The translations under genes and the position numbers were made by a program. From the IMG/VR virus record IMGVR_UViG_3300030376_004320, positions 1-40,563 of that record: DNA of 40,563 bases; one strand, written 5' to 3'. A model generated the notes under the pieces. That model made no database searches, was not told where the DNA came from, and saw only the letters and a list, made by a program, of their open reading frames with translations. Below are positions 1-39,746 of this stretch, piece after piece. Source of the stretch: a virus (Duplodnaviria; Caudoviricetes). The first letter of the stretch is position 1. Every line of letters starts with the position of its first letter.

Positions 1-1093
1 CATATAAAACCAATTTTGTCTTCTTATTATATAAATAGTCTTGAATTAATAAAATCTTCTTAATATTAGATTCAGTTTCATAAGCCTGAATTAAATAGTT
101 AAAAACTTTATTTCTATTTAAATCCTCGTAATTCTTAAATAATAGTTTCCGTCTATAAATATCAGTTGAAACTAAATTATGAGTGTTTATTTCATTCCAT
201 TTCTTATTTATATAAGTATGAACTTTATCAAAAAATGGAACTTTTTCTCGTGTTTCTTTATCAATTCCACCATATAATAATTTAAATGTTTTCTGTTTTG
301 ATTCTTCATATGAACATTCATAGTGTTTAGATAAATGTTCGTGAACTGATTCTTCACCAAAATCATAATTAACCAAGTCAGCAATCAATCTCAAGTGATA
401 AGCATCAAAGTCAAATTCAACTAAATAATCGTTTTCAGCTATGAATCCTTTCCTTTTCTCAGGTGGTAGAGCAGCAAAGTTAACACTTCCAAATGAATTA
501 CTTGGACGGCCTGTTGTTGTCCATAGATTGTAATTTGAATACAATTTACCATTCGATATATGTTTCTTTACTCTGATGTCAAATATATCACATATATCAT
601 CAGATACCTTGATACCATTCTTTTCAATAGATGTAAATGCTTTCACAACATCATTCATATAAGAATCATCTTTATCTACAAATATATTATCCATTGACTT
701 TAAAATATCATTACAATACTCATTGTGTTTCGATAATGGTATGATTTCGTTAAGTTTTTTAACATTGTAAAACTTATTACTCAAGAAATCTATTGCATTA
801 TTCGTTATATGTTTTTCAAATGGTTTTGATGTCTCTTCCCAATAAGAATGATTAATATCAACAACATTGTCAAATTGATAAAAATGATTTAATTTTTTTT
901 TATCTGGCGTGATAATTATGTGTTCATTCAACCATTTGAAATCTTCCAAAACCTTATCCGAATCAGGATGTTTTTGTATTATGAAGAATGATTTATCGTC
1001 TTTATGTTTAACCCATAGTGCTGATAATCCATTGTTTTCATGTAATGGATGTAAGAATGGTTCTTTAAATATAGGTATAACACAATAATACAT
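1..1093 (-). CDS. polA: Family A DNA polymerase, compact and atypical, 3' end runs off the window (not in ORF track)
   Basis: Hand translation from ATG 1093 stays open to base 1: MYYCVIPIFKEPFLHP...WTTTGRPSN...VEFDFDAYHLRLIA (motif A)...SKQKTFKLLYGG (motif B)...FNYLIQAYETE...KLVLY (approaching motif C). Confidence 0.85.
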   Translation of the reverse strand, partial: MYYCVIPIFKEPFLHPLHENNGLSALWVKHKDDKSFFIIQKHPDSDKVLEDFKWLNEHIIITPDKKKLNHFYQFDNVVDINHSYWEETSKPFEKHITNNAIDFLSNKFYNVKKLNEIIPLSKHNEYCNDILKSMDNIFVDKDDSYMNDVVKAFTSIEKNGIKVSDDICDIFDIRVKKHISNGKLYSNYNLWTTTGRPSNSFGSVNFAALPPEKRKGFIAENDYLVEFDFDAYHLRLIADLVNYDFGEESVHEHLSKHYECSYEESKQKTFKLLYGGIDKETREKVPFFDKVHTYINKKWNEINTHNLVSTDIYRRKLLFKNYEDLNRNKVFNYLIQAYETESNIKKILLIQDYLYNKKTKLVLY

Positions 1094-14082: not shown

Positions 14083-14946
14083 TTATTTTCCTACTTGTTC
14101 GTCTGTTGCATCACCTTCCATACCAAAACTAACTTTTGACACTGTTGTGAATTTTTTCATATTGGATACTTTGTTTGTAATTACCGAATTTAAGTATTCT
14201 GGTAGTAAATAAGCTTTTGTGGTAACACTAAATGTAGATTTAATAAATCTTTCCCCATCTTGATTCATCTCTGAAGCATCTGAAATATTATCAATTGTGC
14301 ACATAAATTTATTATCTGTCCCATCACCCCAATATGTATGTGATTGGTCTACAAAAGACTCCACTAATGGATTCATTTGTTCAATAAAGTTTGTCCATAA
14401 TACAAATTCATATGTTACATCTGAATAGTTAGGCATTCCAGTTACAACATTTTCATATACAGGTTGAACTCCTCGTTGAACTGAAAATCTATCGTATTGA
14501 TTATCTTTACTCCATCTTGAGTTTCTAACCACATCAACATATTTTCGTTGAATATCATGTGGAAAGGATTGTCCTGAAAAATCATTTCTTGAAACCTCTG
14601 TTCTTCTTAACATAATTAATGGTAAAATTAATGAATTGTTTTTATCTCTTAAAACACCTCGACTTCTAACAGCCTTCCATCTTTCTTCATTACCATAATA
14701 AACAGGTATTTTAAAAGTTTCATTAGCTTCTCTAACTCTTGGTTTCATCACATTCTTGACATGATTCAAAACTGCAGTATCAACATCTTTTAAAGTGATG
14801 GAATAATTATCTGCAAAATTATTACCAGGTATAATAGTTGTTTCTCTATTACCACGAATTGTAGTTCCTTTAGTAGATACCTCATTAGCTCTATTAACTA
14901 ACTCTTTATTCACCACACCTTTGTTTGTAATCTTATTTACTGCCAT
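14083..14946 (-). CDS. Tail terminator/sheath stabiliser (gp15-like)
   Basis: KIPVYYGNEERW...LPLIMLRR...VTYEFVLWTNFIEQMNPLVE pattern; between neck and sheath genes. Confidence 0.7.
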   Translation of the reverse strand: MAVNKITNKGVVNKELVNRANEVSTKGTTIRGNRETTIIPGNNFADNYSITLKDVDTAVLNHVKNVMKPRVREANETFKIPVYYGNEERWKAVRSRGVLRDKNNSLILPLIMLRRTEVSRNDFSGQSFPHDIQRKYVDVVRNSRWSKDNQYDRFSVQRGVQPVYENVVTGMPNYSDVTYEFVLWTNFIEQMNPLVESFVDQSHTYWGDGTDNKFMCTIDNISDASEMNQDGERFIKSTFSVTTKAYLLPEYLNSVITNKVSNMKKFTTVSKVSFGMEGDATDEQVGK

Positions 14947-15319
14947 TTCGTCTTCTCAGTTTTTTAAGTTTATCAAGTTTATTGTTTACTTTGCCTTTTA
15001 CTTCTTCTGATTTAATACTACTCATATCAGCTTTACCAATTGCAATCTCTTTTTTAATATCTACTTCAATGGCTTTGACACCTGTTTGACTTGGTGTATC
15101 AAAGTTGTCCAATTTATTCATCAACTTACCCATCATTTGTTCCATTTGTAAATTACCATTTGGTTCAGGTGTATAGGTGTGTTTTCTTTCACCATATACA
15201 TCTTCATCATCTTGAACATTACCACTAACCTCTTTTTTTGGTTGAGGTTTTTCTTGGTAATTAGGATTAGAAGTATCAAACTTCGTAATTTTTTTTCCTA
15301 TGATTTGTTGAACAGCCAT
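14933..15319 (-). CDS. Hypothetical soluble protein; C-terminus paralogous to the actin-adjacent membrane protein (25006-25317)
   Basis: IEVDIK...KADMSSIK...VKGKVNNKLDKLKKLR matches IEVDIK...KSDESSVK...IKGKVKTQKDKLKKLR. Confidence 0.7.
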   Translation of the reverse strand: MAVQQIIGKKITKFDTSNPNYQEKPQPKKEVSGNVQDDEDVYGERKHTYTPEPNGNLQMEQMMGKLMNKLDNFDTPSQTGVKAIEVDIKKEIAIGKADMSSIKSEEVKGKVNNKLDKLKKLRRRNGSK

Positions 15320-15321
15320 TA

Positions 15322-16554
15322 TTAATATCCTTTAATTTCTTCCCAAGTTGGTAAAGCTACACCAGCGGGTGAATCTGTAGTTAATCTTCCATCATTACCA
15401 GTTCCTGATAAATCTTCAACCGTAGTTCCACTACCTTCATTCATTTTCCAATATCCTACAAGTCCACTTTTACCATTAGTTAAATGGTTATAATTAATTC
15501 CACCATTATATACTTCGTTGGCAAAAGTTCCAACTGAATCAATGCATGTATTGTAAATAGCCACTTCATCAAGAGCACATGCAAATCCACTACTATATCC
15601 TGAACCTTCAGTATTACGACCTCCAAAATATATTCCGTGAGTATAACTTTCAGTAGCTTCATCTTGATTGCCCCAAGAAGTGCTGTTGTTATTACTCATT
15701 CTTTCATCTGTATTTATCCACAATCTAAGTTTTCTTTCTCCAGCACCAAACTGAGTACCTGTATATGATATTACCCAATTATACCAGTTACCTACTTCCA
15801 TTGGATTGTTAATTCCAGTAACATCATTACCACCAATACCTACCCCAATATTATTAACACCTGTACCTGAGAATCCAAAATGAAATCTTGCAACTGGACT
15901 ACTAGCTCTCGTACCTAATATAACTGATTTTTGATTCATTTCTTCATCTGGTCTAACCCAAAATGAAATAGTAAATCCATTCCAAAGTGAATAAGTATCA
16001 GGATTAAAAGTAGTTGATACAAATGTTTTTGTAGCTCCACTTCTATCACCCGAAAATGATAATGCATAATTTTTAGCGGGTGCATCTCCACCTCTTCCTT
16101 TTCTGTATCTAAGTCTATCTATTAAAAGATTATTTTCTTGAAATACTTTTTTAGCTAAACTTTCATTTATTTGAAATAAATAATTACTCTCTGGTATTTC
16201 TAACCAACTCATCCAATCTAATTTTACATTACCTTGTTTCTGTTTTGATACCTCTACTAATGTAGGAATTAAGTTTGTGCTATCCACAATATCCATTTTT
16301 TTAATTTTATCTTCATATAATTTTTTTGTATTAAATGCAGTCTGATTTGTCAACCATTGTGAATTTAATTCTTGTTTCAAGTTTTCAATAATTTTGTCTT
16401 TTTCTGCCAACTCATCTTGGTATTGAGATTTAAAAGATTTTATATCTCCCACAGGTTTAGAAATAAACATTTCATTTAATTTTTGTTTATCTTTTTCTTT
16501 TTTATCTGTGGATTTACCACCACCAAATCTCTCTTTTAATAAATCTAAACTCAC
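15322..16554 (-). CDS. Coiled-coil plus LamG/concanavalin-like domain virion protein
   Basis: YALSFSG, FTISFWVRP, GNWYNW, LDEVAIYN, GLVGYWKMNEGSGTTVEDLSG LamG motifs. Confidence 0.8.
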   Translation of the reverse strand: MSLDLLKERFGGGKSTDKKEKDKQKLNEMFISKPVGDIKSFKSQYQDELAEKDKIIENLKQELNSQWLTNQTAFNTKKLYEDKIKKMDIVDSTNLIPTLVEVSKQKQGNVKLDWMSWLEIPESNYLFQINESLAKKVFQENNLLIDRLRYRKGRGGDAPAKNYALSFSGDRSGATKTFVSTTFNPDTYSLWNGFTISFWVRPDEEMNQKSVILGTRASSPVARFHFGFSGTGVNNIGVGIGGNDVTGINNPMEVGNWYNWVISYTGTQFGAGERKLRLWINTDERMSNNNSTSWGNQDEATESYTHGIYFGGRNTEGSGYSSGFACALDEVAIYNTCIDSVGTFANEVYNGGINYNHLTNGKSGLVGYWKMNEGSGTTVEDLSGTGNDGRLTTDSPAGVALPTWEEIKGY

Positions 16555-17027
16555 TATCTTGGCCTCTCTTCTATTTGTAATGATGATAATCTTGAACGAT
16601 GTGCTGTCGCTACAATGTTGTGTTTAAAATTTGGATGTCCTGCAAATAATTGTGGTTCTGTTGTTCCATTGATTTCCCAATAATAATCATTCCAATCCAC
16701 AATATCACCAATCTCAGGATAAAAATTCAATGAACCACTTGCTAAATTTTCTCTTTGGAAAAACATTTCAATATTAGAATTAACATCAGCACCAAACTCA
16801 TCTTGTATTACTTCAGGTTCATTATAATTTATCAAACAATTAACTCTGAATCCTATATCATAATATTTAGCAGTTGATTCACCATATACATTGTCCTCTG
16901 TTCTTTCGACATTGACTTTGTAAATATCAACTGATTGTCCGACAATTTCGTCAATCAACTCTTCATTCATTTGATTAATTAAATCAAATTCTTTTTGTGG
17001 TATAAAAAATGGTTTTGTTTGTGACAT
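16554..17027 (-). CDS. Neck/head-closure protein (gp14-like)
   Basis: DNVYGES...YPEIGDIVDWNDYYWEI pattern; follows gp13-like gene. Confidence 0.7.
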   Translation of the reverse strand: MSQTKPFFIPQKEFDLINQMNEELIDEIVGQSVDIYKVNVERTEDNVYGESTAKYYDIGFRVNCLINYNEPEVIQDEFGADVNSNIEMFFQRENLASGSLNFYPEIGDIVDWNDYYWEINGTTEPQLFAGHPNFKHNIVATAHRSRLSSLQIEERPR

Positions 17028-17031
17028 TTAA

Positions 17032-18213
17032 TTATCCTATGTATATTTTTAATGGAGCTTTATTCAATACCTCTTGTTGAGCATTTGCAACATCTTGTTC
17101 AGTAGTTGCTTGCTCCTTTTTACTAACAGCTTCAAAAAACTCTTTTAATTCTTCTAAAGCATTCGCCTTCTCTTCCCTACCTTCAGCTTTTAATGCTTCA
17201 CCATCCATCGACACTTCACCATTTGGTAAAGGTAATGAAGCGTATTTACTTCTAATTATTCCTAATAATTCTTTAGCTAATGCTAATGTGTATTTTCTAA
17301 TCCAATTTCTACCCATTGAATTTATTTCTGTATAGGTTAAAAATTTATATGGAATGTTTGATGGGTCGGATACTCTATTTAAAGTTTCATTTTGTGTAAC
17401 ATCTATCCTATCATTTCGTTTGTAATAATGAAAATGTATTTTATTACCAGCGTCAGCATCTTCAGGTCTTGGAAAAATTCTTATTTTGTTATTTATCAAT
17501 TCAAATGAATATGCAGACTTTCTAACCAAATCATTTGTCTCAATCGCATTTGCTCTAGCCAAATCATATGATACTGGTCTTAAAATATATGATACCGCAG
17601 GTGATACATTACCAAATCCAAACGCATCTAACATCTCTATATTATCATAAGTTCCAGCAAATGGGTCATAGAATTTAGATATAGCAGCTGGTCCGTGATT
17701 AAATACTCGTTGAACTTCTAACTTATCAACACTCGAAACACTTGACTCTAAACTTGACTCAGTCGGTAAATCATAAACTTGTTTAGAACCAGTCAAAGTA
17801 ATTGAACCTGTAAACATAGTAGCATTACCACCAACATTTGCAAATTGTCCATATTGTTCTGATAAAGTAAATGATAATCCACCAACTGATGTTTCTGCTT
17901 GATGTGAACCTGTTGAACTAAAATTTGAACCAGTAGAAGTGTTTCCATAATGTTCCCACATCCAATTCTTTGTATTGTAATGATTTATTTGTTGTGAGTA
18001 TTCCGATACTGCCTCTTCAAAACAAGCATACATTGAACCACTATTAAATTCAAGTTGCATAACAGGATGTCCAAGTTTTCTAGCTACATATTTACAAACC
18101 GTTAAACTATCGGTTTGAAATTCCGAATCTGTATCATAGATTCCATGTGGTGTTGAACCAGTGACTTGATTAGGATCTGTTGGATCTTGATATAAAAAAC
18201 TAAATTTTGACAT
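17032..18213 (-). CDS. Neck/head-tail adaptor protein (gp13-like)
   Basis: RKLGHPVMQLE N-terminal and WIRKYTLALAKELLGIIRSKY...LPNGEVSMDG C-terminal motifs. Confidence 0.85.
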   Translation of the reverse strand: MSKFSFLYQDPTDPNQVTGSTPHGIYDTDSEFQTDSLTVCKYVARKLGHPVMQLEFNSGSMYACFEEAVSEYSQQINHYNTKNWMWEHYGNTSTGSNFSSTGSHQAETSVGGLSFTLSEQYGQFANVGGNATMFTGSITLTGSKQVYDLPTESSLESSVSSVDKLEVQRVFNHGPAAISKFYDPFAGTYDNIEMLDAFGFGNVSPAVSYILRPVSYDLARANAIETNDLVRKSAYSFELINNKIRIFPRPEDADAGNKIHFHYYKRNDRIDVTQNETLNRVSDPSNIPYKFLTYTEINSMGRNWIRKYTLALAKELLGIIRSKYASLPLPNGEVSMDGEALKAEGREEKANALEELKEFFEAVSKKEQATTEQDVANAQQEVLNKAPLKIYIG

Positions 18214-18242: not shown

Positions 18243-18255
18243 CATATATAAATAT
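18243..18255 (-). promoter_or_regulatory. Putative late promoter ATATTTATATATG
   Basis: Recurrent motif upstream of neck operon. Confidence 0.65.
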
Positions 18256-22476: not shown

Positions 22477-22731
22477 TTAATAGTTGTTTTTCGCTTTTTC
22501 TTTTTCGATATTGTATTTATTTCGTAGTTTAGCGAGATTTCTTTTGTGTCTTTTAATTTCTGATGGTTTTACATAATATTCTTTTTCTCTTAAATCTATG
22601 AATAAATTACTAGCTTTTATTTTTTTCTTTAAAACTTTTAAAGCCCCATCTACATTGTTGTTAAAAACCGTTACTGATAACCCTACTGCATTGTCTTTAG
22701 GTTTTTTCCTAAAGTTCCTTCTTTTTTTCAT
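22477..22731 (-). CDS. rpsU: Phage-encoded ribosomal protein bS21
   Basis: VTVFNNNVDGALKVLKKKI...LREKEYYVKPSEIKR matches the bS21 signature (AL+.FK+K...Y.KPS..R). Confidence 0.9.
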   Translation of the reverse strand: MKKRRNFRKKPKDNAVGLSVTVFNNNVDGALKVLKKKIKASNLFIDLREKEYYVKPSEIKRHKRNLAKLRNKYNIEKEKAKNNY

Positions 22732-22732
22732 A

Positions 22733-23989
22733 TTAACCTCTTGGATTTAGTTTGTTTTTCATAAAAAATTCTACTGCTTTATTATATTTTGCTTTTGGAA
22801 TACCACTCCATTCAAGTCCTTTACTACCTTTATCATTTAATGACCAATTTACAACTGATTCACCTGATGGATTGAATGGAAATTTTCCTTTATTCTTTTT
22901 TAAAAGTTTTTCTAATTTTGATTTATCTTTTTTATCAAAAAATATTGATTGAGACCTATAAGCTTCATTTACTTTTTCTTCTTTCATTTTTTTCAATTCT
23001 TTTTCTCTTATATCAATAATCTTTTGAAATGCTTTTTTCAAACCTGGTGATTTAGCTTTATTTCTTATTTCTTTCATTCCATTGTTTATGTGAGTAGCAA
23101 CTAATTTTCTTGTTACTTTAGTTCCTTTTCTAACTTCACCTACTTTATAATCTTTCATTATTTTATTTCTAACTAAAGATAAAGCACCTTGTGCTGTTTT
23201 ATCATTGTGTTTATCTAACATCTTTTCATAAGCACCACCTAAATTGATTTTTTCATCCATTTGTTCTTTGATGATTTCTCTAATGGTTTGTCTTAATTTT
23301 TGTTCAAATCTAAATCCACCTCTATCGTGTTCTTTAGCATTAACGATAGATAACATACCAACTTTTGATTTTGGAACTTTTAATTTAAGAATAGCTTTTT
23401 GTTTAGCATCATATAAACTCTTACCATCAATGGTATGTTTCTTTCTATTGTAGAAAGCATAAAATTTAGTTTCTGATAATTGTTCTGATTTAGATTTTAT
23501 AAACTCATTAGCCAAATATCTTTCTCTTCCGTATTGAGCCTTTGTCCATTTCTTACTCATTGATTTAGGCATTTCACTCAATTCAACACCTTCGTTATTC
23601 ACCATCCAAGCAACTCTACGAGCATCTGAATTATATACTTTCTTATAACGATTCTCTTCTAATTTTTTCATCCACATTCTAACTTCTTTTACCGTGTATC
23701 TTCTCATTTTGGATTCTTTAACTTTTTTCTTTGCTGCTTTTTCAGCTGCATCTAATTTAGCATTTTGAGCAGCTGCAAATTTGTCAGCTTTTTTCTTAGC
23801 GGACTTTGAAATCTTTTTCACATCTCTAACGGTAACGGTTTTACCATCAACTTTATGTTTACTACCAGGTTTCAGATTATGTTTCTTTCTATAAGCATCA
23901 TATTGTGCTTTAGAACCGAATGTTTTTTCAGTTAAATCAACTATAGTATGTCTTATAAGTTCTTTAAGCTGACTCTTCGTTACTTTCAC
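22733..23989 (-). CDS. Lys-rich modular putative internal head polyprotein
   Basis: MKVTKSQLKELI leader; modules separated by LTE, VKE, LSE, MDE, VNE. Confidence 0.6.
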   Translation of the reverse strand: MKVTKSQLKELIRHTIVDLTEKTFGSKAQYDAYRKKHNLKPGSKHKVDGKTVTVRDVKKISKSAKKKADKFAAAQNAKLDAAEKAAKKKVKESKMRRYTVKEVRMWMKKLEENRYKKVYNSDARRVAWMVNNEGVELSEMPKSMSKKWTKAQYGRERYLANEFIKSKSEQLSETKFYAFYNRKKHTIDGKSLYDAKQKAILKLKVPKSKVGMLSIVNAKEHDRGGFRFEQKLRQTIREIIKEQMDEKINLGGAYEKMLDKHNDKTAQGALSLVRNKIMKDYKVGEVRKGTKVTRKLVATHINNGMKEIRNKAKSPGLKKAFQKIIDIREKELKKMKEEKVNEAYRSQSIFFDKKDKSKLEKLLKKNKGKFPFNPSGESVVNWSLNDKGSKGLEWSGIPKAKYNKAVEFFMKNKLNPRG

Positions 23990-25004
23990 TATCTTCCTCC
24001 TCGATTAATTGTGCTTCACTTAAACAACCTCTTGCGACTGCTGTGTGAGCATCTTCCACTAATGTAAATTCTTTAACATCAATAGGAAATTCATCTTGAT
24101 TAAATTGTTCCCCTACTACTTCCATAAAACCCTTTACTAAACTTGTTCCACCACCAAATACGATTGGTATGGAATCAGGAAAGTTTGGAACACTTTCAGC
24201 ATTATTAAACTGATTTGTTAAGTTTGTTAATAAGTAATTCACCAATGCTCCGTAATAACTTCTGATAGCATTAATGATATTATACTCATCACTTCCCTCA
24301 TTATAAATATCATTTATCGCACTTTTTGTTAAATCCAACTTACTTGAGTTTTCTTTAACACTTATCACTTTTGCCTTTGTAACACCACAATCACTTGCGA
24401 CATTTTCATCAATCCAATCTCCACCTCTTGCTACAGAAAAGGAGAGTGCACTCATCCCTTGATACATCACACATACATTACACATTCCAGCACCCATAGA
24501 TATTGCAATCCCAGTTAAATCATTATCCACAAGTCCTTCGTAAGCGAGAGCAACACTCTCCTCTATAACTTTGACATTGTATCCATATGTTTCAATAATC
24601 TGTTTCAATACATCTTCGTGATAAGAAACTTCTCTTGTTTGGTCGATTGGTTTAGCTGGTATGCAATAAACACATACTTCATCTTTTTTAGCTTTTCCAA
24701 CCAACTCACCTATAATAGCATTCAATACAGGTAGTGCATCTTTTTCCTTCGGGTTCAATAACCCTTGAGACATTGGTCTCTTTAATTCTGTTGTGCTAAA
24801 TATTTGAGCATAATTAAAAGCGTGTTGTCCAACGATGTGAACCTTACCTGCTTTTTCAACAAATGGAATGTTTTGTCTTTTTAACATTCGTTTAACTTGA
24901 TTTGCATCTCCGTCAACGGTTAAGAATACATTTCTTTGTTTTTTCATACTTTTTTCTGTGGCTGTTATATAATAACTTGTTCCACAATCTAAGCCTTTAG
25001 CCAT
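23964..25004 (-). CDS. Actin-family ATPase (volactin/MreB/ParM superfamily)
   Basis: Phosphate-1 GLDCGT, RPMSQG, connect-1 EESVALAY, phosphate-2 ISMGAGMCNV, ARGGDWID, adenosine GGGTS, connect-2 TAVARG. Confidence 0.9.
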   Translation of the reverse strand: MAKGLDCGTSYYITATEKSMKKQRNVFLTVDGDANQVKRMLKRQNIPFVEKAGKVHIVGQHAFNYAQIFSTTELKRPMSQGLLNPKEKDALPVLNAIIGELVGKAKKDEVCVYCIPAKPIDQTREVSYHEDVLKQIIETYGYNVKVIEESVALAYEGLVDNDLTGIAISMGAGMCNVCVMYQGMSALSFSVARGGDWIDENVASDCGVTKAKVISVKENSSKLDLTKSAINDIYNEGSDEYNIINAIRSYYGALVNYLLTNLTNQFNNAESVPNFPDSIPIVFGGGTSLVKGFMEVVGEQFNQDEFPIDVKEFTLVEDAHTAVARGCLSEAQLIEEEDSESNEESA

Positions 25005-25005
25005 A

Positions 25006-25317
25006 TTAACCTCTTAGTTTTTTTAGTTTATCTTTTTGGGTTTTCACTTTACCCTTAATTTTTTCGTCTAATTTGACACTTGATTCGTCTGATTTTGTGT
25101 CCATTATCACATTACTCTTTATATCTACTTCTATTGGCCCCATATTCTTTTTAACTTTTGTTTCCTCTATCGTTGAAGTTTTTATTACTTCTCCGATGTT
25201 TAAGTTGGGAGACTTGTGAAACTTAAAGTTTTTTGAAACCCATATGAATAAAATCCATAGTCCGAAAAGAGACTGCCATATGAATAGACTGATAAATATG
25301 AAATCTAACAATTCCAC
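25006..25317 (-). CDS. Single-pass membrane protein, putative actin partner
   Basis: N-terminal hydrophobic helix FIFISLFIWQSLFGLWILFIWV; ends 1 nt before the actin start; C-terminal motif shared with 14933-15319. Confidence 0.7.
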   Translation of the reverse strand: MELLDFIFISLFIWQSLFGLWILFIWVSKNFKFHKSPNLNIGEVIKTSTIEETKVKKNMGPIEVDIKSNVIMDTKSDESSVKLDEKIKGKVKTQKDKLKKLRG

Positions 25318-25959: not shown

Positions 25960-26247
25960 CTATTCCCAAAATATTAGTTTAGCGATTACACCCAACACTA
26001 ATGAGTAAATACCCCATAATGCATGAGTTACATTTTGTTTAAAACTTTTTAATTCTTCTATTTCTTGTATATTGATTTGTTTTCTCCAATAAGTATTTTT
26101 GTTTACTCTCACAATAATACCATCTTCAGGATCTAACAACACTTCTTTAATTTCTTTGACGGTAGTATGAATCTCTTCCAATTCACCATTCATTAACTTC
26201 GTCTCAACACAATCTAATTTTTTTAATATGTCTTTATTTGTCGCCAT
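25960..26247 (-). CDS. Small protein with C-terminal transmembrane helix
   Basis: Coiled-coil followed by ALWGIYSLVLGVIAKLIFW. Confidence 0.6.
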   Translation of the reverse strand: MATNKDILKKLDCVETKLMNGELEEIHTTVKEIKEVLLDPEDGIIVRVNKNTYWRKQINIQEIEELKSFKQNVTHALWGIYSLVLGVIAKLIFWE

Positions 26248-27177: not shown

Positions 27178-28077
27178 CTAAGTTGGTAACTTTAACTTTA
27201 CTCTTGACCAAAGTTTACCCAATACCATAATTAATTTTTTCTCACTCATTTTGTTCATTTTTTCTTTGTCTTTATCTTTGACGGCATTGTATAACTTCAT
27301 TAATAGATTTGCTGATTGCATATCTACTGTTTGTCCTCCAACTTTTGCATGTTGTTTATCTTTTACAATTTTTGCAATTTTTGCCATACCACCTATTGGT
27401 TCTACTTCTTCTTTCATTTTTTTCTTAATCAAATGAGGACCTGCAGGTTCTTCACCTAATTCACCATTTTCACCATACCCACAAGTTCCTTCTGATACTT
27501 TACCTGCAGCTAATCCTTGTTTCATATACTTTTGAGTAGCTTTAAAAAATGTCATCATTTCAGTTCTGTCCAAGAACACAGGTTTTTTACCTGATTTTTG
27601 TAATGTGATTCCTTTAAATTCTATTTTAACCTTAACACCATTTGGTAATGTTACCATTTTGGCCTCATTCAGTTTTGCTTCGTGAGTTGTAAATGAACGA
27701 CCAAGTACACTTCTTACAGCTTTAGCCAAAGCACTAACACTTTTTCTATCTAAACCAAGTTTACCCTTTTTACCCACAAGTTGTAATCTATCCCTACCAG
27801 CAAAACTAACATCTTTCATTTTTGATATTCTGACTGTGGTTTCATTGATTTTATTCAATTCTTCACGAACCATTTTCTTAATCAAATTTCTAACTCTTTG
27901 TTCTCGTTTCACTTTTTCTGGTTTCCCTTTGTGTTTCGTTGAAGCAAAATCATCAACATCTTTTTTCTTCATTGACTTAGCAACTTTTCCAGCTTCACCC
28001 TTTTTAGGTTTATCACCTTTTTGCATTGCTTTCACAACACCAAAAAACCTTTGTTGAGCTTTTGATTGAGCTGGCAT
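27178..28077 (-). CDS. Modular putative internal head polyprotein with DUF3008-like N-terminus
   Basis: MPAQSKAQQRFFG...DFASTKHKG; INE, LNE, VSE junctions; two modules paralogous to 39243-39746. Confidence 0.65.
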   Translation of the reverse strand: MPAQSKAQQRFFGVVKAMQKGDKPKKGEAGKVAKSMKKKDVDDFASTKHKGKPEKVKREQRVRNLIKKMVREELNKINETTVRISKMKDVSFAGRDRLQLVGKKGKLGLDRKSVSALAKAVRSVLGRSFTTHEAKLNEAKMVTLPNGVKVKIEFKGITLQKSGKKPVFLDRTEMMTFFKATQKYMKQGLAAGKVSEGTCGYGENGELGEEPAGPHLIKKKMKEEVEPIGGMAKIAKIVKDKQHAKVGGQTVDMQSANLLMKLYNAVKDKDKEKMNKMSEKKLIMVLGKLWSRVKLKLPT

Positions 28078-30566: not shown

Positions 30567-30579
30567 CATATATAAATAT
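30567..30579 (-). promoter_or_regulatory. Putative late promoter ATATTTATATATG
   Basis: Recurrent motif. Confidence 0.65.
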
Positions 30580-36012: not shown

Positions 36013-39000
36013 CTAAAAATAAATTAAACCTGTGATTTGATTGATTGGAGCAAATGCACCTGTGAATTTATAAGTTTTTCCTTTATACTTAAACACCAAT
36101 CCTTCACTTGGAACAATTGATTTAGTTCCACCAATAGCATTTAATTTATCTAATTGTTGTTTCAATACTTTTAATTTTTTTACATCACCACCACTTTTTA
36201 CAACATTAATAGCTTTATCTAATCTTTTAACAACACCTTGAACTGATTTCTTTGGATTAGCTGATATGAATCCTTTTACATTTTTTAATATCTCAGCTCC
36301 CACTTCAAAGAACAATTCTTCAAATGGTTTCATATTTTTTTTCACTTGTTGTTTATGATTCGTTTTATCAAAATCTAATATCTCTTGTGTAATATTTTTT
36401 TTCTTTGGATTCGCTTCTATAAATCTTTTCATATCTTTTTTTATATCAGCGACTGAATATGATTTATCAAAGAAAGCCCATCTTTTAACTAATCCTTGAA
36501 CAAGTTTCCCACTTAAATTTTTACTTCCAAATGTTTGGTATATTTTATGTTCCCACCACATTTGGTGATATAAACCCAACGTATCATTATCTTTTAAACC
36601 ATATTCAGCTTTTAATTTATTTAATCTTCCTAAAAATTTATCTTTCATTTTACCAAAATCTTGATGTTTTGGAACATCTAAAAACACAGGTTTACCAATG
36701 GAATATTTCTTTTGTATGTTTTGATTTCTTTGTTGAATCATACCTGCAAGTATTCTACCACTACCCGGCACCTCACCTTTTACATTACCTTTATCATCAT
36801 AAATCAATGCTCCGTGAAATATCAATTGTGTTACATCGTAATCAATTACATTCGCAGACGATGGATACATCACTTCTAAATTCATAAAGTTATATCCGTT
36901 GTTGAATATCTTATCTCTTTGTTTATCTGATAAAGACTTAATTGCTTTTTCTAAATCATTCATAGCAAATACAAAAGCATTTCTAATACTACCTCTACCT
37001 TTAAACTTACTTGCTATTCCTTTTTTATCCAATGCTGTTTTACCACCATTCTTAATATGTCCTTTGTTTCTAGCTGCAATAAGTTTTCCATCTTTGAAAC
37101 TAACCATAATGTTCTGTCCATCTAATTTCTCTGTAACATTATCTTCACGATTTAATTGTCCACCTAATCCTAATTCAATGATTTTTTTCAAGTCACCGAA
37201 TGTTAATTCTTTGTCGTCAAATGGATGAGCCATATGTCCATATGCTCCACCCTCTAATATCAAACCCTCTTTATACAATACTTTCAAATTACCTTTATCA
37301 ATCTGTTTGTCGGTATGTAATTTATCCATTTCTTTTTTAGTAATGGTAATTGTTGGTTTTGTATCTTTTTTAAATCCTTTTTTAGGAACTGCATAATAAG
37401 CTTTTCTTAATCCAAACTTTTTACCAACAACTTCACCTTGTCCAGCGTATTTTTGCTCTAAATCTTTTTGAGCCTTTGCTTTATCATATCTGATTACAAT
37501 ACCTCTTCTCATTAATTTTTGTTTGAATTTTTTTGTTTTAGCAGATACTTCATTTAAAACATCTCCCCACCATTGTTTTGTAAATACATTTTCTTCAACT
37601 TCTTCTTTTTCTTGTTGTTTAATTGTATCCACAGTATCTTTAGCAATTTGTTTTCTGGTATCTTTATCTTGTTTTGTAAACTTCATTAATTCCATACCAA
37701 CCTCTTCGGCTTTTGTCCTCATAGACCTAAACCATTTATCATATCCTTTTGTACCAGTTAAATTTTCTTGGTTGTTTGGTGTTTTTCCTGTCCCAATTCC
37801 AGCTGGTAAATAAGATACAGAATTATGAGGGCCAATTGGCCAACCATCTAATAACTCAGATTCATCTGGTGGTAAGTTATCTACATCACCTTGTAGAATA
37901 TAATTAATTACAGTCCAACCAAGTTTTTCTGCTTCTTCATTACCTCTACCTTTATAATGGTCTGAGTTTTTAAACATTAAACTTGGACCTGAATCCACAC
38001 CTTGAATACCACCAGCGTTTGTTGTATTTGAAACTTCAAATATTTTACCAATATCATTATGAATTAAAAACTCATCTATTTCTTTTGATTTAATAATTCT
38101 AAACTTTAAAGCTGGTCTTCCATTAATTATCAAATCACCTTTTTCATTAAAATCTATTGATTTAATAATTACTTTTTTGTTTTTAAATCTACCCATCATA
38201 ATCGTATCACCAACTTTGATTGGTAAGTCTAAATCAAACAATAAATCTCTTTTCTTTTTATCAAATAATTTTGGATTTTTAGGTTTTGGTTTTGTATTAT
38301 CCCAAGTAGTATGTATAACATCGTTTTCTCTTACAGGCTCATAACCTCTTTTTATTTTATCTTTTTTTCTTTTTTGAACACCTGCTTTAGAATCATTATT
38401 ATCATCAAAGTCATATGTTTCAGGTTCCGCTTCCAACCCATCAATATGTGGACCACTGTGATAACGGTGATGTTTAAGAAATTGTTTAAATTTTTTCTTT
38501 TCTGTTGGACTATTCATTTTCATTTTTTTATATTTATCTGTAACTTTTGTTGGTAATCCTTCATTTATTTCAAATAGTTTTTTAAATTTATTTGACATCA
38601 TAGTGAAAACACCTTTGTCATAATATCCAAACATCTTCTTGAACAACTTCACTCTTTGTTTATCATCAAACTTATCTGAACCAAGTAATTCTCTCATTGT
38701 AGTTCCACTAACTTCTTTTCCACCAACTGATATTGAAACATGTGGAGCAACTAAATAATACCCATTCTCACCATACCCTTTTAAATTCTTTTTGTTTTTT
38801 AAATAATCTTGAAAGTATTTTCCACCACCACCTAATCTACCTGCATCTTTAGCACCAAATACATAAACAAATGCTGTTGTGTTTTTATCGTATTTCTTTT
38901 CTAAGTTCTTTGCAACATAAGGTGATTTTTCTTCAATGATGTATTTTGATTTAACACCCATTTTAGTCATATGTCTGACTTTTTCTTTAAAATTCATTGG

Positions 39001-39189
39001 ATGTCTTGGAGGTTTTTTTATATTGGATGTTGTGATGTATGCTTCATCAACTTTGGATTGTAACCATTTATATGTTTTATAATGATGAGGCCCGAATGGT
39101 TGAAATCTACCACCATATATACCAATGACTTTTTTTATACCATTGGCTTCTAAAATTGGTTTAATTATTTCTTCTACAAGTTTGTTCAA
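36013..39189 (-). CDS. Multidomain protein: N-terminal HIGH-superfamily cytidylyltransferase-like domain plus C-terminal ATP-dependent ligase-fold domain
   Basis: IYGGRFQPFGPHH and VSGTTMR (HIGH/ISSTxxR-like); TEKLDGQN (KxDG motif I), NLEV, EGLVFK (motif IV), YKF. Confidence 0.75.
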   Translation of the reverse strand: MNKLVEEIIKPILEANGIKKVIGIYGGRFQPFGPHHYKTYKWLQSKVDEAYITTSNIKKPPRHPMNFKEKVRHMTKMGVKSKYIIEEKSPYVAKNLEKKYDKNTTAFVYVFGAKDAGRLGGGGKYFQDYLKNKKNLKGYGENGYYLVAPHVSISVGGKEVSGTTMRELLGSDKFDDKQRVKLFKKMFGYYDKGVFTMMSNKFKKLFEINEGLPTKVTDKYKKMKMNSPTEKKKFKQFLKHHRYHSGPHIDGLEAEPETYDFDDNNDSKAGVQKRKKDKIKRGYEPVRENDVIHTTWDNTKPKPKNPKLFDKKKRDLLFDLDLPIKVGDTIMMGRFKNKKVIIKSIDFNEKGDLIINGRPALKFRIIKSKEIDEFLIHNDIGKIFEVSNTTNAGGIQGVDSGPSLMFKNSDHYKGRGNEEAEKLGWTVINYILQGDVDNLPPDESELLDGWPIGPHNSVSYLPAGIGTGKTPNNQENLTGTKGYDKWFRSMRTKAEEVGMELMKFTKQDKDTRKQIAKDTVDTIKQQEKEEVEENVFTKQWWGDVLNEVSAKTKKFKQKLMRRGIVIRYDKAKAQKDLEQKYAGQGEVVGKKFGLRKAYYAVPKKGFKKDTKPTITITKKEMDKLHTDKQIDKGNLKVLYKEGLILEGGAYGHMAHPFDDKELTFGDLKKIIELGLGGQLNREDNVTEKLDGQNIMVSFKDGKLIAARNKGHIKNGGKTALDKKGIASKFKGRGSIRNAFVFAMNDLEKAIKSLSDKQRDKIFNNGYNFMNLEVMYPSSANVIDYDVTQLIFHGALIYDDKGNVKGEVPGSGRILAGMIQQRNQNIQKKYSIGKPVFLDVPKHQDFGKMKDKFLGRLNKLKAEYGLKDNDTLGLYHQMWWEHKIYQTFGSKNLSGKLVQGLVKRWAFFDKSYSVADIKKDMKRFIEANPKKKNITQEILDFDKTNHKQQVKKNMKPFEELFFEVGAEILKNVKGFISANPKKSVQGVVKRLDKAINVVKSGGDVKKLKVLKQQLDKLNAIGGTKSIVPSEGLVFKYKGKTYKFTGAFAPINQITGLIYF

Positions 39190-39242: not shown

Positions 39243-39746
39243 TTACATAACATTCTTATTAAACCAAGCTTTTAATTTAGTACTTAACTCATATGAATCA
39301 TCATCATTTAGTTTTCTTGATTCTTTTCTTAATAAACCAATGATTTTAGTAAAAGCTTTATCTGCTTTGCCCTCTGTAATGTTTTCTTCTTTTAAATATT
39401 TACGAGTTCCTTTAAAAAAATTTAACATTTCATCTCTATTTAAAAATACAGGTTTAGTTCCACCCATAAATGTTATACCTTTAAACTCTACTTTAACTTT
39501 AACACCATTTGGTAATTTAACTACTTTGGCCTCATTTAGTTTTTCTTCTGTTGTAAATGAATACCCCATACCAACTTCTTTTGAAGTTCTAACAATTTTA
39601 GCTAAAGTTTTTACACTTTTTTTATCAAGTGTTACTTTACCTTTTTTACCAATAATTTGAACAAATCTACCTGGTTCAAAATTAGCATCTTTCATTGTTG
39701 AAAGTCTAATGGTTTTTTCGTTTAATAATTCTTTTAATTTTACCAT
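39243..39746 (-). CDS. Modular putative internal head protein
   Basis: MVKLKELLNE leader; LNE, LNE, ITE junctions; two modules shared with 27178-28077. Confidence 0.65.
   Translation of the reverse strand: MVKLKELLNEKTIRLSTMKDANFEPGRFVQIIGKKGKVTLDKKSVKTLAKIVRTSKEVGMGYSFTTEEKLNEAKVVKLPNGVKVKVEFKGITFMGGTKPVFLNRDEMLNFFKGTRKYLKEENITEGKADKAFTKIIGLLRKESRKLNDDDSYELSTKLKAWFNKNVM

Follow-up and report, generated by a model that had tools for sequence, protein, structure and literature searches.

Two small proteins encoded by a T4-like phage, ORF A among its neck genes and ORF B beside an actin of the volactin family, end in a common tail that, by structure prediction, likely binds this actin. Given this predicted docking, large uncultured marine phages of this kind likely use a filament of their own during virus-particle building. 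The sequence analyzed, here called the window, is 40,563 nucleotides long and represents a 40.6-kb piece, about 24% complete, of a large T4-like myophage. Every called gene lies on the minus strand, and the gene content includes terminase, portal, prohead protease, bS21, gp23 capsid, neck genes, sheath, tube, and baseplate (Table 1). Relatives of the phage are present in Tara and other marine data.

Table 1. Features of the window discussed in the text (nucleotide positions unless residues are given).
Feature	Position	Strand	Remarks
ORF A	14933..15319	minus	128-aa soluble putative adaptor, neck operon
Layout of A	residues 1-14, 59-74, 83-123		N-terminal peptide, helix, and C-terminal tail, joined by variable linkers; from conservation and model
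N-terminal peptide of A	15278..15319	minus	resembles N-terminus of gp15-like terminator
Actin-contacting part of A's tail	14945..15031	minus	about residues 97-125; prediction
gp15-like tail terminator	14083..14946	minus	synteny and weak profile match to T4 gp15
gp14-like gene	16554-17027	minus	heads A's operon with gp13-like gene; label from synteny alone
gp13-like head-tail adaptor	17032-18213	minus	heads A's operon; PHROG Ad2 match, E 2.5e-12
Volactin-family actin	23964..25004	minus	346 aa; nucleotide-site residues invariant
ORF B	25006..25317	minus	103 aa; one predicted membrane helix, linker, same tail as A
Exact copies of 10-base motif	9193, 10674, 11291, 13710, 18246, 18956, 21937, 30570, 36003	minus	exact matches
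Candidate late-promoter motif	18246..18255	minus	ahead of neck operon
Same 10-base motif	30570..30579	minus	ahead of run with prohead protease, B, actin, and bS21

The shared tail, the volactin, and their distribution

The first-pass annotation proposed that A and B carry the same C-terminal motif on unrelated N-termini, and both reading frames lie where it placed them. Their last 41 residues are 23/41 (56%) identical (BLASTP E 3e-8), with a Smith-Waterman score of 97 that none of 10,000 global (maximum 79) or 10,000 local shuffles (maximum 75) reaches, and the match is the second-best among the 946 pairs formed by 44 window ORFs. An alignment between profiles of the two families spans 48 columns (98.9% probability, E 3.8e-17). 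The N-termini are indeed unrelated, that of B being a hydrophobic helix and that of A soluble. The tail is lysine-rich, and its final codons also serve the following gene, as its ribosome site or its start; this overlap was rejected as the cause of the 41-residue match because it accounts for the last few codons only.

Searching 1.84 billion representatives with a tail profile gave 164 proteins. The 150 listed matches are all at most 158 residues long, and hydropathy sorts them into 48 membrane-type, 60 soluble, and 42 short sequences; by inspection, the intact ones among those listed are A-like or B-like, and several others look like assembly chimeras. The tail is present in exactly two copies in G001, a clade record that is 95% complete. 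Scans of A against Pfam, PHROG, and NCBIfam gave no match, and a PDB sequence search with the A profile returned 0 sequences at E up to 10. Family scans of B returned a weak DUF538 match only, and matches in the ESM Atlas were limited to unnamed viral clusters.

The actin is a volactin (Pfam Volactin PF25216, E 6.8e-76, 256 bits against a cut-off of 35) that falls below the cut-offs of the MamK, BeeR, MreB, and FtsA profiles. Its AlphaFold model has a pLDDT of 90 and finds its best folds in MamK and MreB (TM 0.63-0.68), and residues D6, T9, E149, S169, G171, G173, G285, and G286 are invariant in 54 grouped volactin sequences. ORF B adjoins the actin in the window, ending 1 nt before the actin start; among relatives it is directly next to the actin in 57/94 B-actin pairs and otherwise lies up to 3.4 kb upstream. 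Genes inserted between the two in relatives, like 22733-23989 in the window, encode many small basic proteins with a similar start, 'LKE.IREE', which at a guess are possibly internal head proteins cut by the prohead protease.

The distribution of the three genes among relatives agrees with a functional connection. ORF A is found in 41/41 loci with the actin and 0/30 without it (71 scorable loci, one clade), a test that is weak because it covers a single clade, part of the loci come from repeated contigs, and the clade has further small genes largely confined to it, such as 25960-26247 (14/29 clade loci vs 0/30 outside) and 22733-23989 (28/29 vs 2/30). A search among relatives for phages that commonly carry A and lack the actin came back empty, A and B both being absent from all 30 scorable actin-less loci and from complete outgroup genomes. 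Wherever a locus extends 2.5 kb or more upstream of the actin, ORF B is present (55/55), and in the 12 actin loci where it is missing the contigs end within 1.1 kb upstream of the actin. Similarly, A lies at most 2.5 kb from the terminator in 135/154 loci with at least 600 bases upstream; the other 19 comprise 17 outgroup loci, one with A 3.6 kb upstream, and one contig that is too short. Volactin and tail are both absent from three outgroup records (98-100% complete) and from the GenBank phages Immutovirus, Mel-JY01, and LR756508, and only 2/50,697 GenBank phage records carry a volactin. Complete relatives thus build virions without any of the three genes, which counts against the explanation we favor below. 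Pieces from relatives in four marine RNA libraries cover A, B, and the actin; these are contigs without a silent control and therefore do not demonstrate transcription or its level. A short contig filed under a Candidatus Pelagibacter MAG (L172) carries a clade volactin that is 72% identical, and is probably phage DNA binned into the MAG rather than host evidence.

Predicted docking of the tail and its likeness in other lineages

The binding of the tail to the actin was modeled with A's tail. Residues 76-128 of A together with the actin score 0.71, against 0.00 for the best of three controls; this mark is reached by 116/157 solved complexes and 2/215 mismatched pairs, numbers that apply only approximately with the alignments used here. 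The complex runs agree in at least 78% of contacts with a partner pLDDT of at least 58. In the model an extended strand of the tail follows actin residues 15-23, 47-61, and 96-101, and the tail's end helix (K114-L121) lies between actin helices 155-163 and 325-333, K114, L115, K117, L118, and L121 being the best-placed residues. If Q137 and Y143 of actin correspond, as we assume, to E149 and Y155 of the volactin, the predicted site is the hydrophobic cleft. That cleft is used by ParR, arcadin-2, and WH2 (PMC5173319; all PMC sources are cited for their accessible text). Short helices in actin clefts, as in ParM:ParR and crenactin:arcadin-2, are common in solved structures, and resemblance to these may have helped the model to pass.

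Residue 155 is aromatic in 46/47 volactins (11/11 of this clade, 25/25 jumbo, 7/8 planctomycete, and 3/3 haloarchaeal). Within a sister phage lineage it is aromatic in the three loci whose partner has the helix and lost in four without it, which form one branch and count as one event. The membrane partners in L173, L275, L278, and L281 stop before the terminal helix, and the volactins there lack the cleft aromatic; L173 is filed under a Bacteroidales MAG and looks like the same sister lineage as the other three.

Outside the clade, volactins fall into separate groups: those of jumbo phages, of planctomycetes, of haloarchaea, and of the sister phage lineage, where the partners are membrane proteins. 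In each group the gene upstream of volactin usually closes with an extended stretch and then a short, basic helix with leucine spacing. Jumbo volactins are 32-40% identical to those of this clade. A jumbo tail profile was built from 34 tails of volactin-adjacent genes in unrelated jumbo phages, chosen by hand out of 71 new loci. This profile puts A at the head of 289 window frames (E 0.023), and the 50 frames that it scores best among 13,912 from phage loci are all motif ORFs. Planctomycete partners make up 43 of its top 67 among 7,620 frames, and its profile-profile comparison with the clade motif gives P 1.7e-5. The tail of A is matched or beaten on this profile by 2/2,000 shuffles, while that of the window's B is no better than shuffles (1,549/2,000 score as high). 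A blind profile of four sequences, the set being defined by the N-terminal domain alone, also ranks A first, with 25/2,000 shuffles scoring as high as B's tail. Searching the whole genome of G001 with the jumbo profile found nothing.

Compared pair by pair, the clade tails resemble planctomycete and haloarchaeal tails weakly (P 0.002-0.03, probability 2-16%). A clade-only motif profile was not significant against haloarchaeal and huge-phage partner tails (17-622/1,000 shuffles as high), so intermediate lineages are needed to connect them. Three haloarchaeal volactin partners end in a faintly similar helix, and a profile of B matches these three only in that helix (best E 0.17). The partner in LR756511 (L165) was considered and has no tail of this kind. 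Taken with the prediction for A's tail, the remote likeness to volactin-adjacent tails in other phages, planctomycetes, and haloarchaea supports the earlier suggestion of an actin-binding peptide used twice.

The tail might instead pair A with B, or both might bind some other phage or host protein, so that necks would be tied straight to the membrane. The lysine-rich composition of the tail and the double use of its final codons suit this possibility, which we hold to be very improbable: the tail of A is predicted to bind the actin, related tails adjoin volactin in lineages with one copy only, and the cleft residue is altered where the partner's end helix is absent.

Several features of these lineages were noted in passing. 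Loci L174-L251, mostly Planctomycetota MAGs, have a chromosomal volactin with a soluble upstream partner, which ends in a conserved helix, a linker, and a basic helix and belongs to one family in 67/79 loci (L173-L251); no clear match to a known family was found for it. The IMG/VR jumbo records (L428-L497, up to 497 kb) and LR745208 (L166) encode a volactin whose partner is soluble, measures about 200-250 aa, and is composed of an unannotated N-terminal domain, a linker, and a tail of the same kind; it comes directly after a Neck1-like gene and before the sheath. In the sister lineage, L274 is a phage that apparently reads TGA as Trp and has a clear B homologue (E 5e-19); the membrane partners at L274:7700-8090 and L471:5657-6199 read through TGA where homologues or the domain suggest Trp. 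The membrane partner at L471:5657-6199 has a LysM-like domain before its membrane helix, as in P0393, and this LysM-membrane-tail variant fits a topology with the tail inside the cell.

ORF A in the neck operon

As first annotated, A sits among neck genes. It lies between the gp14-like and gp15-like genes and belongs to a tightly coupled run (gp13-like, gp14-like, 15322-16554, A, gp15-like) in which it starts 2 nt after 15322-16554 and overlaps the gp15-like start by 14 nt. The neck labels derive from synteny, the PHROG Ad2 match of the gp13-like protein, and a profile of the terminator family whose sole PDB matches, both weak, are to T4 gp15 (E 0.011 and 0.013). The placement of the terminator gene between neck and sheath genes fits gp15. 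The gene at 15322-16554 is a variable laminin-G-domain gene inserted in the operon and was not found in the 29 clade loci tested.

A 10-base AT-rich motif has nine exact copies in the window where 0.68 are expected, all intergenic and all on the coding strand. A related motif precedes the gp13-like gene in 95/100 clade loci, and we infer that the motif is a late promoter. A sigma-70 scan, also tried, gave no excess (89 vs 97 expected).

The protein itself is likely a mostly unfolded chain, as judged from its AlphaFold model (pTM 0.18), in which the N-terminal half is unfolded and helices form at 59-74 and 114-125. Mean pairwise identity across 58 homologues is 0.37 for residues 1-14, 0.30 for 56-73, and 0.53 for 83-123, against 0.12 and 0.10 for the linkers (15-55 and 74-82). 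Helix 59-74 probably serves to oligomerize A. The N-terminal peptide resembles the start of the terminator: a matrix of A residues 3-13 run over 859 distinct gene starts, 46 of them terminators, returned terminator starts as its top 25/25, and the two N-termini match by profile with P 5.8e-6. Outgroup terminators have different N-terminal starts. A may here mimic a binding arm, or the likeness may be left over from gene duplication; the conservation of the peptide favors a function.

A neck context is also seen in jumbo phages. Their partner has one strong copy in 20/21 matching records (26 searched) and directly follows a Neck1/HK97-gp10-like gene in 36/43 loci, and a sheath-like gene lies within 10 kb in 29/40 jumbo volactin loci. 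A tail-bearing soluble neck protein therefore recurs in a separate lineage, with an N-terminal domain unrelated to that of A (P 0.67). Operon position, the promoter-like motif shared with the run containing B and the actin, the neck context of the jumbo partners, and the terminator-like N-terminus together point to a role for A in handling virion cargo, for which we see the odds as evenly balanced.

Two alternatives read the same gene order differently. The main one, a serious rival that we nevertheless judge unlikely, is that A is a soluble regulator of the actin (a cap, monomer sequesterer, or depolymerizer resembling arcadin-2), one that contends with B for the cleft and frees or takes apart filaments, its place in the neck operon reflecting timing and not cargo. 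A and B are predicted to use the same site, A has no folded cargo domain in its model, and arcadin-2 depolymerizes crenactin through this very groove with a C-terminal helix on an unstructured linker (PMC5173319). However, regulation alone leaves the conserved terminator-like peptide unexplained, the candidate oligomerization helix would better suit a multivalent, ParR-like grip, and the neck context is found again in an independent lineage. Alternatively, the tail may bind an actin that, instead of being a transport filament, acts at the membrane in joining necks to tails, either as an assembly ATPase or as a short scaffold. The jumbo-phage actin itself lies between Neck1-like and sheath-like genes, and in a third lineage the actin stands just before a probable portal gene (labeled by inspection). 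We nonetheless find this improbable, since archaeal volactin makes long dynamic filaments (PMC10869688), the best folds of the phage actin are the MamK and MreB filaments, and its nucleotide-site residues are invariant.

Possible mechanism and known systems

The explanation we favor, at about even chances overall, is that A docks by its tail in the cleft of the phage volactin and binds a neck or tail intermediate by its N-terminal peptide. Late in infection, the actin would polymerize into filaments, and B would tie the filament tip to the inner membrane. A, probably oligomerized through helix 59-74, would grip the same kind of tip, and its N-terminal peptide would hold that tip to necks or tails, docking at the site also used by the terminator's N-terminal arm. 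Assembling particles may thereby be gathered or positioned. The tails of A and B would share one cleft and so would bind the same filament end; the tail of ParR binds its pocket only at the growing filament end (PMC5016525), and Haloferax volactin filaments meet membranes by their tips (PMC10869688). With one cleft for both tails, bridging from membrane to cargo would call for filaments in antiparallel pairs, the arrangement of ParMRC, or for a hand-off between the two proteins. The three-part system of filament, anchor, and cargo put forward in the first-pass annotation keeps its shared tail and predicted binding, and in a simple form with the anchor at one end and the cargo at the other it would need one of these two devices. 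More tentatively, and at somewhat less than even chances, several large and jumbo phage lineages may run an actin-based cytoskeleton for virion assembly, a counterpart of PhuZ, in which an ancient tail plugs volactin to a membrane anchor, to a neck adaptor, or, in this clade, to both, A bridging filament tips to necks by mimicry of the terminator's N-terminal arm.

Among the close known systems, volactin VolA (HVO_2015) of Haloferax volcanii belongs to the same actin family (PF25216), and its CdpA-like neighbor HVO_2016, encoded upstream, is a membrane protein whose tail is cytoplasmic (PMC12126565). The system described here differs in that the actin is phage-encoded and 31-37% identical, the membrane protein has one predicted helix instead of four, and a second, soluble copy of the tail lies in a neck operon. 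B resembles CdpA-like anchors in layout, with no profile match in the N-terminal membrane domain. The accessible text of PMC10869688 and PMC12126565 describes no binding peptide for volactin.

In ParMRC, the type II plasmid partition system of ParM, ParR, and parC, the unstructured conserved C-terminal tail of ParR sits in the hydrophobic pocket of the actin at the growing filament end (PMC5016525, PMC5173319), and A's tail is predicted to use what would be the equivalent cleft. Unlike ParR, A has no visible ribbon-helix-helix domain (none by Pfam, PHROG, NCBIfam, or PDB, and the N-terminal half is unfolded in the model), and the phage system has a different actin family, two adaptors, and a context of virion genes. 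Arcadin-2 is likewise soluble and binds the groove through a conserved helix at its C-terminus, carried on a flexible linker (PMC5173319), whereas A has no sequence match among solved structures and no folded core. Having neither a DNA-binding domain nor a sequence match, A is not a member of the ParR or arcadin-2 families. The WH2 motif places its helix first and the extended LKKT/V segment second; the predicted order in A is the reverse, with the extended segment first and the helix last, and A has no Pfam WH2 match.

Corynebacterium prophage CGP3 has AlpC, an actin-like protein, with a co-transcribed adaptor, AlpA, which binds DNA and acts early in replication (PMC4446434), whereas here two adaptors lie among virion genes. 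A system that positions phage DNA in the manner of AlpAC or ParMRC, with A as the DNA link, would accommodate ParR's use of the same groove (PMC5173319, PMC5016525) and the actin and adaptor that CGP3 employs for DNA (PMC4446434). We rate its probability as extremely small, given that A has no DNA-binding family match (Pfam, PHROG, NCBIfam, PDB) or folded domain and that its genes sit among virion genes while alpAC are early genes (PMC4446434).

If the cargo step holds, the functional analogue of the filament-cargo explanation is PhuZ, whose spindle in nucleus-forming jumbo phages is a phage cytoskeleton and carries capsids away from the membrane (PMC7950403); PhuZ is a tubulin, and the accessible text of that source makes no mention of a small adaptor pair. 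Movement of phage cargo on a phage's own cytoskeleton is known for tubulin, and in the single published phage actin that we found the role is to position DNA. If a widespread actin of phages is indeed wired to their neck genes, it would be a second route to organize virion assembly in the cell. The tail is also a testable candidate for whatever anchors the tips of volactin filaments in haloarchaea and, if it binds, would be a further short peptide that uses the actin cleft, as ParR, arcadin-2, and modulators in eukaryotes do. Each of the components is small, so that in vitro study is possible without a cultured host. A literature search of openly accessible main text found no paper on phage volactin or the tail peptide; the supplements of the volactin and CdpA papers could contain relevant phylogenies.

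Other features of the window are recorded here. The gene for bS21 (22477-22731) lies on the same strand as the structural genes; bS21 in such a neighborhood is known from freshwater phages, with late expression (PMC9723584). The word actin is absent from the main text of that paper, and the accessible text of PMC10914622 makes no mention of actin. Strong Shine-Dalgarno sites at many window genes fit a Bacteroidetes host poorly. Two lysine-rich proteins (27178-28077 and 39243-39746) have a common 115-residue domain with 59% identity, and 36013-39189 encodes a 1,058-aa protein with an N-terminal cytidylyltransferase-like domain followed by long unannotated regions.
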